Below, piece by piece: positions 8,905 through 11,868 of a stretch of DNA of 58,013 bases. The translations under genes and the position numbers were made by a program. Position 1 is the first letter of the stretch. Each line of letters starts with the position of its first letter. Below the pieces are notes generated by a model that was not told the DNA's origin, did no database searches, and saw only the letters and a list, made by a program, of their open reading frames with translations. The stretch is from a virus (taxonomy: Duplodnaviria; Heunggongvirae; Uroviricota; Caudoviricetes): IMG/VR virus record IMGVR_UViG_3300045988_029198, positions 1-58,013 of that record, one strand, 5' to 3'.

Positions 8905-9315
8905 TCAGAACGGAATGTCGTCTGAAAAGTCCATCGGAGGCTCATTGCCTCCTTGTGGGCTTTGTTGTTTTTGTGGCTGCTGTTGCTGATTTGTTACCCA
9001 TCCGCCTTGAGGTTGTTGGCCTGATTGCTGGCGCGGTTGCTGACCAGAATCATCACGTTTACCACCAAGCATCTGCATAACGCCACCCATCTGTGGAATG
9101 ACAATCTCCGTAGTGTATCGGTCTACGCCGTTGCTGTCAGACCACTTACGAGTGCGCAGCTGTCCTTCGATATAAACCTGTGAACCTTTGCGAAGGTATT
9201 CTCCTGCAACTTCCGCAAGTTTCCCGAAGATGACTATGCGATGCCATTCAGTCTGTTCCTTCTTTTCTCCTGTCTGCTTATCTTTCCACTGCTCAGATGT
9301 TGCAACAAAAAACAA
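8905..9315 (-). CDS. ssb: N-terminally truncated SSB-like protein (TTG start), retains acidic C-terminal tip DDIPF
   Basis: 136 aa aligns with E. coli SSB from about residue 33 to the C-terminus ([17 protein letters not shown]...[15 protein letters not shown]...MDFSDDIPF); an in-frame TAA lies 3 codons upstream of the TTG, so the first OB-fold strand is absent. Confidence 0.6.
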
Positions 9316-9336
9316 GCCAACGGCTTAGATAACTTG

Positions 9337-11868
9337 TTATAAATCATCCTGATAATAACGTGCATCGTAATTGATGCACGTTAAACCTACCTGATAGTTA
9401 TTATCCCTTCCTGACGGTTCCATACTCTGAACAAGCATTGCTAATTTGCTACGCTCATCATCAGCACGGATCACATATGCTGTACGGTCACGCAACCATC
9501 CTGTATAAATTTCTTCAGATGGCTGGTAAGCCATTATCACGGAAAATTTATCATCCCCGGCAGTTACAGGAATGTTTTCAAGTGTTCCCAGTCGGTGTGT
9601 TAACGTTATGCTGTATGTATTACCCGTGGCGAACGTAACAGGATCGCTAAGAATAAGTGTTAAACCATCAACATCGACTACAATGCCTTCATGCTGTTTC
9701 ATACGAGTGTTATCAATCATATCCACACGCATGCCTGGAGTAGCCTGTAACCCGATACTAAGCGCTGTACATTCGTGAGTAATACGTTGGTAACGCAACT
9801 TATTCATCTCACGATTAGCACGGATATTTGCAAGATATCGCGATTGACACGCAACAAGATCTATCTTATTAAGGTTTGTTTCTTCACCTTTGGTTACATA
9901 CAAATATGATTTTTCATCGTGGTCGAAGTATTTAACCTGAACACCCGTATATTCTTTAGGTGGTGCAAAAGAACGTGTGCGTTTATCACTGTCAGGGATC
10001 TTAAACGCGTGACCAAACTGCATTGCTGACTGGTCCTGCGGTAATTCAGGCCAGAAATACAATACACTACCGATCTGATACGGTTTAACATTCACCGTGT
10101 TACAGATAGTGTCCAATCCTTCTTCGTACGTCGTACTGTTATTATCAAACGTATAGCCAACTTCAATTGCTCGTTGGTCACCAAAATATTCAAAAAGTTG
10201 TTCCTGAACAGCATATAAAGCATCGCGATCAATAGTGTCCAATGTGCGACGACCAAATAAAGGATCTGTGTGCATTGACATTACAACGTCTGCAAAATTA
10301 CTACTTGCAACATCGTTATACACACGTGTTGCAATCATGTTTAATTTACGTTCTTTTTGTTTCAGTGCAGCGTTTGTTGCTTTCGTCACAGTATGGATCA
10401 ATGTCACATCACCGTAGGAACGCGGGGAAACGTTCGTGATAGCGTATAAATCGCGCCACTTAATGTTATCAACAACAGACCCTTCGAAATCTTTGTCTGT
10501 ATTTGACAGTCGTCTTACAGACACGTTAACAGGACCGTCAAAAGGGTTGTCCACAATTAACGAACTGCCTACAGCTTCTGTATAGCGACCACTGACAGAC
10601 ATAGAATGTGTCACATTTGTTTTCACACCGTTCGGGTCCGACAAAACTACCTGGAAGTTACAGGTAAACGGGTAAACATCACCGTCCGTTTTATACACGC
10701 CATTCTGTGCATAAAGGTTAATCATCAACTTATCCGCACTATCAATCAGATAAGGCCCGACAACATATGGCATGGTACTGTCAAGAGACGGTGAAAATTT
10801 GTATAAAAAATTTCCGCTTCCTTCAGTGGGTTCAAATTCCCAGTAACCGTCGTTTCGCAAGTAAGCCTGTGTATATGCAGCCTGACCACTTTCAGACAGA
10901 GCATCCCAACCATCACGACCATTAATATCAATGATTAACGTATTCTCACCTGCATAAATAACATCATATTCACCGGACAGGTCATTACGTACATACGTGT
11001 TTAACGGTAACGTATTAGGTGTAAAACTGTAAAATTGTGACAAACGAATTTTACTACCGATTGGTGCACGTTCTGACCAGTCAATCGTAGTGTTATCATC
11101 GCTGGAAATCGTAGTATCAATTTCACCTGTGCTGTAAATTTTAAAACTTGCTTTACTGATATCCGCATAGTTTGGTGGCTTGACTTCAGATCCGTCTGCT
11201 TCGTTCGATGACTTAGCAACCATGATCGGAAAAGTGTTAATATCAATTGCACCACCGATATTCATATACGGAGAACCATAACCAGGTGCATTACCTTTTT
11301 TATAAAAGTCTAATTTTTCACCGCTGATATTTACAGCAGGTGTAATACCATCACGAACGTCTTCGACTTCGTATTCACCAGCACCCAGACACAGAAACTG
11401 AACTTCGTATTCTATTCGGTCAATGAAGATTCGGTAGTCCATTAACAGGTCAGGATATGCCAGTACACGACCACGGATATCAGAAATACGTTCACCCGGT
11501 CGTGAAGCATTAGTACGCCCCTGAAGCGCGTTGTTAGACGACGCTGAACGTGAATTCTTAAGATTAGCCGACGCACTGGTGTTCGGCATAAACAATTTTA
11601 AAATGGGGTTTAGAATTGTGCTAATAACTTTCGTTATTGCACTAACCACTCCACCTTTTGGTAGTTCATAAATATGATAAACAGCGTCAGGATCAGTCAA
11701 TACGCTGGGGTCAGTAACCCACTTTTGGGTAATGTTTTCGTCGTTTTTATAAATCAGTAACCCACGCGGACGAACTGTACCCACGGGCCAGCGTTTCAGC
11801 ATCCATTCACCAAAGTCAACGTTATCAGCGTGTTCAACAGGGTTAGTGTGATAGATGACTTTAGACAC
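9337..11868 (-). CDS. tail tip / central tail fibre protein (host-specificity J-like)
   Basis: 843 aa, GTG start; last large gene of the tail operon downstream of tape measure and minor tail proteins. Confidence 0.5.
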   Translation of the reverse strand: MSKVIYHTNPVEHADNVDFGEWMLKRWPVGTVRPRGLLIYKNDENITQKWVTDPSVLTDPDAVYHIYELPKGGVVSAITKVISTILNPILKLFMPNTSASANLKNSRSASSNNALQGRTNASRPGERISDIRGRVLAYPDLLMDYRIFIDRIEYEVQFLCLGAGEYEVEDVRDGITPAVNISGEKLDFYKKGNAPGYGSPYMNIGGAIDINTFPIMVAKSSNEADGSEVKPPNYADISKASFKIYSTGEIDTTISSDDNTTIDWSERAPIGSKIRLSQFYSFTPNTLPLNTYVRNDLSGEYDVIYAGENTLIIDINGRDGWDALSESGQAAYTQAYLRNDGYWEFEPTEGSGNFLYKFSPSLDSTMPYVVGPYLIDSADKLMINLYAQNGVYKTDGDVYPFTCNFQVVLSDPNGVKTNVTHSMSVSGRYTEAVGSSLIVDNPFDGPVNVSVRRLSNTDKDFEGSVVDNIKWRDLYAITNVSPRSYGDVTLIHTVTKATNAALKQKERKLNMIATRVYNDVASSNFADVVMSMHTDPLFGRRTLDTIDRDALYAVQEQLFEYFGDQRAIEVGYTFDNNSTTYEEGLDTICNTVNVKPYQIGSVLYFWPELPQDQSAMQFGHAFKIPDSDKRTRSFAPPKEYTGVQVKYFDHDEKSYLYVTKGEETNLNKIDLVACQSRYLANIRANREMNKLRYQRITHECTALSIGLQATPGMRVDMIDNTRMKQHEGIVVDVDGLTLILSDPVTFATGNTYSITLTHRLGTLENIPVTAGDDKFSVIMAYQPSEEIYTGWLRDRTAYVIRADDERSKLAMLVQSMEPSGRDNNYQVGLTCINYDARYYQDDL

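Follow-up and report, generated by a model that had tools for sequence, protein, structure and literature searches.

The open reading frame at positions 8905–9315 of the window (the whole 58,013-nt stretch of viral DNA analysed here, a 9NA/Sasha-type siphovirus genome that is complete or nearly so) is most likely a non-functional remnant, or pseudogene, of a phage-borne bacterial-type ssb gene that would have been carried along as a passenger of a receptor-binding cassette swap and would now act as a homology arm. The records closest to the window are those of Sashavirus BDX09P1, 536P12 and Escherichia phage KarinMuster_Bas82 (Bas82). The fragment lies outside the replication module, between the tail-tip gene and the tailspike gene, in the following setting:

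5869–8868, plus strand: tailspike gene for a K1-capsule endosialidase with an S74 chaperone domain, convergent with the ssb fragment
8876–8895, no strand assigned: hairpin of a bidirectional intrinsic terminator, AACCCCGC-TTCG-GCGGGGTT, with a T-run on each strand
8905–9315, minus strand: truncated bacterial-type ssb ORF of 136 codons, from TTG (9315–9313) to TGA (8907–8905)
9307–9341, minus strand: junction (filler) sequence, TATAA CAAGTTATC TAA GCCGTTGGC TTG TTTTTT
9337–11868, minus strand: gene for a GpJ-like tail-tip protein of 843 aa, upstream of the fragment
9357–9382, minus strand: strong hairpin (dG -20.7 kcal/mol, z -5.4) within the last codons of the tail-tip gene
57335–57931, plus strand: 5' part of the gene for a Gp2.5-like ssDNA-binding/annealing protein, which continues across the window ends to 112–249

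The initial annotation had described an SSB-like product that matches from about residue 33 onwards and keeps the DDIPF tip, and both points were confirmed by Pfam, NCBIfam and PDB alignments. The Pfam SSB profile (PF00436) is matched with E=2e-26, at profile positions 28–101 of 104 only; the fragment covers positions 31–165 of 165 in TIGR00621 (NCBIfam), of which the full-length IME207 protein covers 2–165, and positions 35–177 of 177 in PRK09010. Alignment with the E. coli-type SSB chains in PDB entries 1EQQ and 7F2N, which maps the truncation, runs from residue 33/35 to the C-terminus and includes PMDF(S/D)DDIPF. The product therefore corresponds to residues ~31/34–166 of the IME207 SSB and ~33/35–178 of E. 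coli SSB; residues 1–27/33 (IME207 numbering) are absent, and clear homology to full-length ssb begins at codon 34 (window position 9306). Equivalents of E. coli W40, W54, F60, W88 and His55 are all conserved in the window copy (in SEQW, TEWH, IFG and RKW), and the acidic C-terminal tip, whose DNA is identical to that of IME207, follows a disordered linker. The TTG start and the in-frame stop just upstream of it were also borne out, with a TAA at 9327–9325, three codons before the TTG. A tblastn search of the window with IME207 residues 1–33 and with E. coli SSB detected no N-terminal ssb piece elsewhere (best E=0.32), and a split gene with a distant N-terminal exon was thus ruled out.

The missing stretch (residues 1–~33) contains strand β1, which we take to be the monomer–monomer/dimer interface of E. 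coli SSB (structures 1KAW/1EYG), and its loss would argue against a homotetramer that binds ssDNA. Since profile and PDB alignments both start too late for a complete OB fold, and since the canonical start with a Shine-Dalgarno sequence and the purifying selection seen in functional phage ssb genes are both lacking, the fragment cannot be counted among functional SSBs. Nor is it needed as one, because the phage has an SSB of its own: a T7 Gp2.5-like ssDNA-binding/annealing protein, unrelated to the fragment in sequence and location, provides this function from within the replication module of such phages and makes the ssb fragment redundant. Its gene adjoins those for an exonuclease (56174–57316) and the DNA polymerase (333–2186), and the whole module in the window (DNA polymerase, Gp2.5-like protein, exonuclease, helicase and primase) shows 98–99% amino acid identity to that of Bas82. 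At the window ends, residues 200–297 of the Bas82 Gp2.5-like protein are unmatched (~193 nt are available where ~294 nt would be expected); this part of the gene may have diverged or be shorter in the window, or else the ends of the record may not close exactly.

Where full-length versions of the gene occur is informative about its source. The fragment is matched by 172 phage records carrying full-length ssb genes of 160–167 aa, among them Shuimuvirus IME207, the Skatevirus members SeSz-2, Seszw_1 and Bas77–81, as well as ZCEC08, HC6 and ASO78B. Nucleotide identity between these donor-type genes and the fragment is 88–96% over the part coding for residues 34–166, and residues 28–166 of the IME207 SSB (ANW46773.1) are 95% identical to the window product. 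Most donor genomes have ssb at the end of an exonuclease–recombinase–ssb block; a position after recombinase/exonuclease genes is seen in IME207, SeSz-2, ASO78B, Seszw_1, Bas78 and Bas81. In all these donor-type genomes, ssb stands tail-to-tail with the tailspike or fibre gene, with a common bidirectional terminator. The window repeats this arrangement: the terminator at 8876–8895 sits between the convergent tailspike gene and the ssb fragment, and appears to have come together with the spike end and the ssb piece from the donor phage type. The fragment thus resembles the donor genes in its linker and tip haplotypes, its downstream terminator and its position beside a receptor-binding gene. 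Conversely, donor genes possess residues 1–33, an ATG preceded by a Shine-Dalgarno sequence (AAGGA-N9-ATG), a place behind recombinase/exonuclease genes and evidence of purifying selection, whereas the window copy has none of these and sits behind the tail-tip gene rather than a recombination module. ZCEC08 and HC6, both K1-type small siphoviruses, have a different SSB N-terminus (MSSIGINKCIILGRVG...); in ZCEC08 an HNH endonuclease gene adjoins ssb in place of the recombinase gene, and a hypothetical protein is annotated at the corresponding position in HC6. This variation in N-terminus and neighbour suggests that recombination boundaries within the donor pool include the 5' end of ssb itself.

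Among 9NA/Sasha-type phages, the distribution of the fragment is patchy. It was found in six sequences, representing five independent copies and stemming from different laboratories and sample types: the window, an IMG/VR contig that is its near-twin (L019), Bas82, BDX09P1, 536P12 and a metagenome contig (L020; QZLM01004012.1, 789–1181). Looser junction patterns run against IMG/VR returned only L019, and a metagenome scan gave L020. No ssb sequence is present between the tail-tip and receptor-binding genes of Sasha, Sergei, Solent, PJ16, AVIO78A, PDP46 and 9NA, and the Klebsiella and Proteus members of the 9NA type likewise have none at this boundary. In Sasha, PJ16, AVIO78A and 9NA the tail-tip gene is directly convergent with the receptor-binding gene, and in PDP46 one small unrelated ORF separates the two. 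The fragment is truncated, is joined to its surroundings by a unique non-homologous junction common by descent, lies beside a module that has been exchanged and is lacking in close relatives that have other modules, as expected of a remnant.

The junction is the same, or nearly so, in all six carriers, and reads TATAA-CAAGTTATC-TAA-GCCGTTGGC-TTG-T(4–6) followed by GTTGCAACATCTGAGCAG. The tail-tip gene ends with ...GATGATTAA in non-carriers versus ...GATGATT|TATAACAAGTTATC... in carriers, so that the inserted DNA starts within the original stop codon of the tail-tip gene and lengthens its product by one leucine; accordingly, the C-terminus is QDDL in carriers and QDD in non-carriers, the extra residue being encoded by the first inserted bases. 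In the window, the junction holds the new tail-tip stop codon (9339–9337), the in-frame TAA at 9327–9325 and a small hairpin, AAGCC-GTT-GGCTT, followed by T6, which includes the TTG of the fragment. The 18 nt at 9307–9324 may represent degenerate ssb codons 28–33, and within them 536P12 and L020 retain donor-like TTTCC/TTTCT. The junction of these two is 1 nt shorter, which places the TTG out of the ssb frame there. Sharing of one junction by six sequences indicates that a single ancestral illegitimate join lies behind all carriers. A read-through fusion of the tail-tip protein with the ssb product was considered and rejected: the two frames coincide in the window, but two TAA codons intervene (one in Bas82), and such a fusion would not be conserved, as the frames differ in 536P12 and L020.

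In contrast to the constant junction, the receptor-binding gene next to the fragment is different in each of the window, Bas82, BDX09P1 and 536P12. The window encodes an endosialidase whose centre is 97–99% identical to the K1 podophage/CUS-3 genes; the O16-type fibre of Bas82 is related to those of Bas105 and Skatevirus, the fibre of BDX09P1 is related to that of the myovirus RPN242, and 536P12 has a fibre of the Phapecoctavirus/Justusliebigvirus type. Variable receptor-binding genes combined with a fixed junction make the ssb piece the constant right-hand border of a variable cassette. The most recent traffic across this border can be located in the window itself:

8425–9045, no strand assigned: segment recently exchanged with an IME207-like phage, in which identity to IME207 is 99.4% (four mismatches)

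This block spans the C-terminal chaperone domain of the tailspike, the common terminator, and the linker and tip of the ssb fragment, and within it every base from 8648 to 9045 is identical to IME207. To its right, 24 mismatches to IME207 fall within 9046–9259 and divergence over 9046–9306 is 9.2%; to its left, the spike body diverges from IME207 by ~22%. Near-identity with so sharp a right edge implies a recent homologous exchange with an IME207-like phage that ended inside the fragment, and the right-hand crossover is accordingly mapped, by comparison of these sequences, to ~9046. The 3' third of the fragment (linker and tip, to ~9045) would in this way have been overwritten from a functional gene, which helps to explain why the window copy looks intact. 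Exchange of this sort is not confined to the window, as the truncated copies keep a constant 5' junction but group, by their 3' haplotypes, with different full-length genes:

IME207-type haplotype: GGWVTN and FSDDIPF
ASO78B/Bas78-type haplotype: DDSIPF
SeSz2/ZCEC08-type haplotype

The tailspike gene bears the marks of the same process. Residues 1–~150 of its product form a Sasha-type anchor, and residues 62–330 are also common to IME207, providing the left homology arm; the Tail_spike_N domain (PF18668, residues ~62–150) is found both in Sasha-type spikes and in the IME207 spike. The 3' end of the gene is IME207-like, its C-terminal chaperone domain being 99% identical to that of Shuimuvirus IME207. 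The spike is thus a three-way mosaic of a Sasha-type anchor, a K1 podophage/CUS-3 core (97–99%) and an IME207 C-terminus, and this composition predicts a K1-capsule-specific 9NA/Sasha-type phage. The real start of the gene is probably the ATG at 5896 rather than the TTG at 5869. A separate observation concerns the unrelated Escherichia phage P817 (Drexlerviridae, MZ826699.1), where positions 3501–3597 correspond to window 9342–9438, i.e. ~100 nt of the 3' end of a Sasha-type tail-tip gene; this piece, unannotated there, sits directly after the tail-fibre gene of P817 and includes the conserved hairpin. It may be regarded as the mirror-image scar of a receptor-binding gene exchange, which supports the generality of the process.

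Copies of the fragment differ in how far they have degenerated. In BDX09P1, an in-frame TAG lies 17 codons before the end and the tip carries a D/S-to-L change (DFDDLIPF). The 536P12 copy has suffered two separate 1-nt deletions and has moreover lost five codons of the linker and one codon of the tip, in frame. L020 combines a -1 deletion in the T-run of the junction with a -2 deletion 50 nt later; these scramble codons 3–15 (13 codons) but together remove 3 nt, so that the TTG frame is regained after them, an outcome that could reflect chance, an error in sequencing the homopolymer or weak selection to keep the frame open. The window copy has no disabling mutation and is open from TTG to tip, and L019 differs from it by three bases within the fragment, one of which is an R-to-H change in the OB core (R84H). 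The frame from TTG to acidic tip is open in three of the five independent copies, namely window/L019, Bas82 and, with the frame restored, L020. Faster evolution of the fragment than of its flanks was ruled out for the window–L019 pair, in which the fragment shows no excess of change (3/411 nt versus 12/820 nt in the spike).

Relaxed constraint is visible when substitutions private to one sequence are counted from codon 34 to the end: the truncated copies of three relatives show a nonsynonymous to synonymous ratio of 15:10, versus 12:33 in nine full-length genes (Fisher p=0.0099). The sample of five independent copies is small, and exchange with functional genes can look like purifying selection and can equally hide selection. 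The private changes in the truncated copies include harsh ones in the OB fold (G68R, G107W, R72S and R86H). The window copy stands as a counterpoint to its interpretation as a remnant, being fully open and having no private nonsynonymous change (two are synonymous). Across the carriers, upkeep of the fragment is not consistent, with decay in some lineages. The initial annotation had suggested a decaying captured gene: decay is upheld by the BDX09P1 stop codon, the 536P12 frameshifts and the nonsynonymous enrichment, while capture from the host gives way to a source in a phage recombination module.

Signals for expression of the fragment are scarce. None of the Shine-Dalgarno cores AGGA, GGAG or GAGG occurs in the 20 nt before the TTG (AAGTTATCTAAGCCGTTGGC), and the TTG itself forms part of the 3' arm of the small junction hairpin, which together with the following T6 is flagged as terminator-like in a consensus scan. 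As a real terminator this hairpin was not accepted and is at most suggestive, being weak (z=-0.5) and less regular in Bas82. A far stronger structure precedes the fragment: the hairpin at 9357–9382 is a 26-nt perfect one, AACGTGCATC-GTAATT-GATGCACGTT, and its nucleotide sequence is conserved in every 9NA/Sasha-type phage examined, including where overall identity is down to 78%. In the Sasha annotation its counterpart is the tail-operon terminator, and it is likely to be a terminator of this operon placed before the stop codon. No promoter site was found upstream of the fragment; the only sigma-70-like site lies inside the ORF (9140–9112), and the count of such sites is below shuffle expectation. 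An Rfam scan of 8600–9600 gave only sub-threshold matches, driven by the terminator hairpin. These arguments from start, hairpin and promoter are of a consensus-level kind and do not amount to measurements.

The alternative that survives best, though still unlikely, is that of an expressed decoy: the fragment would be translated from its TTG by coupling to the tail-tip gene and, itself without tetrameric ssDNA binding, would use its disordered linker and DDIPF tip to titrate host SSB partners late in infection (RecQ, ExoI, PriA, RecO, the chi subunit and others). An intact frame from TTG to tip in the window, L019 and Bas82, restored in L020, speaks for such a role, as does the location of the TTG 21 nt downstream of the tail-tip stop codon and in the same frame, a distance at which low-level re-initiation is possible. 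On the other hand, the tip is lost to the TAG and mutated in BDX09P1, and the frame is shifted twice in 536P12, so that the tip is not conserved in all carriers, contrary to what one would expect of an SSB-tail decoy (a hypothetical class, with no described family). Moreover, translation would have to begin without a Shine-Dalgarno sequence at a TTG sequestered in a hairpin and followed by a T-run resembling a terminator, and this codon is out of the ssb frame at the shorter junctions of 536P12 and L020. The fragment is also missing from most Sasha-type phages, and the intact tip of the window copy is accounted for by recent import, given the identity to IME207 over 8648–9045. The expressed decoy put forward in the initial annotation has accordingly not gained support, and we retain it as an outside chance because of the three open copies, in spite of the loss of tip or frame in two of five copies and the absent translation signals. 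A slightly lower probability still is assigned to the specific scenario in which intact copies are translated at a low level by re-initiation and yield a monomer whose linker and DDIPF tip would compete for host SSB partners. If a decoy did exist, a scar of recombination would have given rise to a new anti-host strategy; the weight of evidence is against this.

Less likely than a decoy, and very improbable in absolute terms, is a dominant-negative subunit that would co-assemble with host SSB monomers, poison the tetramers and shut down host replication. Such a subunit could draw on the W40, W54, H55, F60 and W88 equivalents, all present in the window copy, yet the missing β1, presumably the dimer interface, makes co-assembly doubtful. 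The arguments from expression and decay apply here as they do to the decoy, and changes in the OB core (the four private ones listed above, and R84H in L019) are tolerated among the copies.

A recent capture of ssb from a host chromosome or plasmid, followed by a 5' deletion, is similarly improbable. The product is indeed a bacterial-type SSB that shares with E. coli SSB (1EQQ, 1EYG, 1KAW) the OB core from residue ~35, the aromatic residues, the Gln/Pro/Gly-rich linker and the DDIPF tip; however, the two proteins are only 58% identical, the N-terminal strand or strands are missing from the fragment, and E. coli SSB is not the donor. In 5,426 E. coli genomes, no chromosomal or plasmid match extends over more than 60% of the fragment and identities are 72–80%, with the best E. 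coli ssb reaching ~80% over 34% of its length. Phage ssb genes, by contrast, match at 88–96% and at every base over the 3' part, and the flanking terminator and the 3' end of the spike gene also come from the phage donor. The term 'host-like' used in the initial annotation is hence misleading if taken to mean recent host origin, the nearest genes being phage ssb; judged by these comparisons, the fragment derives from a phage and not from the host.

Finally, a sequencing or assembly artefact hiding a full-length ssb, whose recovery by resequencing the initial annotation had named as a refutation, deserves almost no credence: nothing was found in its favour, six concordant sequences from different laboratories and sample types have the same junction, the 21-nt gap to the tail-tip gene is too small for 33 codons, and the window holds no N-terminal piece elsewhere.

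Returning to a phage ssb remnant as the preferred reading, we propose the following history. The donor would have been a small siphovirus of the Shuimuvirus/Skatevirus/Kagunavirus type, with ssb tail-to-tail with its tailspike or fibre gene, and the recipient an ancestor of a subset of the E. coli-infecting 9NA/Sasha-type phages, which would have acquired a receptor-binding cassette from it. The right-hand join would have been illegitimate, inside ssb at about codon 27–33 on one side and inside the tail-tip stop codon of the recipient on the other, so that the 3' four-fifths of ssb was carried along as a passenger. Being redundant, the ssb piece would then have decayed in some descendants. Since ssb genes from a large pool of co-infecting phages remain ~90% identical to it, it serves as the right-hand homology arm for later tailspike swaps, with the common Tail_spike_N domain as the left arm. 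In the latest such swap in the window, an IME207-like phage would have contributed the C-terminus of the endosialidase, the terminator and the 3' part of ssb. Persistence of the fragment would follow from its being flanked by two essential elements, the tail-tip gene on one side and the spike gene plus terminator on the other, together with repeated refreshment by recombination. What the sequences show is the homology to phage ssb, the common junction, the patchy distribution, the association with receptor-binding cassettes, the decay and relaxed N:S ratio in relatives, and the crossover. We infer the direction and order of these events, as well as the lack of expression and an arm role that is incidental rather than selected; any advantage conferred by the homology arm would be a second-order effect.

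That mosaic phage genomes contain scars and 'boundary' homology arms of this sort is well known. The present case shares with mosaic boundary remnants (Hendrix/Casjens-type illegitimate joins) a non-homologous join at one end, a passenger fragment, later homologous crossovers and decay; there is no essential difference, except that the arm is here a recognisable and still-open ssb ORF. The BASEL paper describing Bas82 does not mention the fragment, and nothing relevant emerged when the literature was searched for comparable truncated SSBs of phages. The fragment is thus a clean, previously unremarked example of a mosaic scar.

Two consequences follow. GenBank and automatic pipelines call an ORF of this kind a normal SSB (the Bas82 copy, Bas82_0054, is annotated as 'single strand DNA binding protein'); because the N-terminal part of the fold is missing and relatives show decay, it should be flagged as a remnant. 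The locus also offers a concrete map of receptor-binding cassette transfer between 9NA/Sasha-type and Shuimuvirus/Skatevirus/Kagunavirus-type siphoviruses, in which the common N-terminal spike domain and the passenger ssb piece border the cassette at its two ends and a crossover is placed with a precision of a few bases. Such a map is of use for predicting and engineering host-range swaps, of which the gain of a K1-capsule endosialidase by a Sasha-type phage is the instance seen here.
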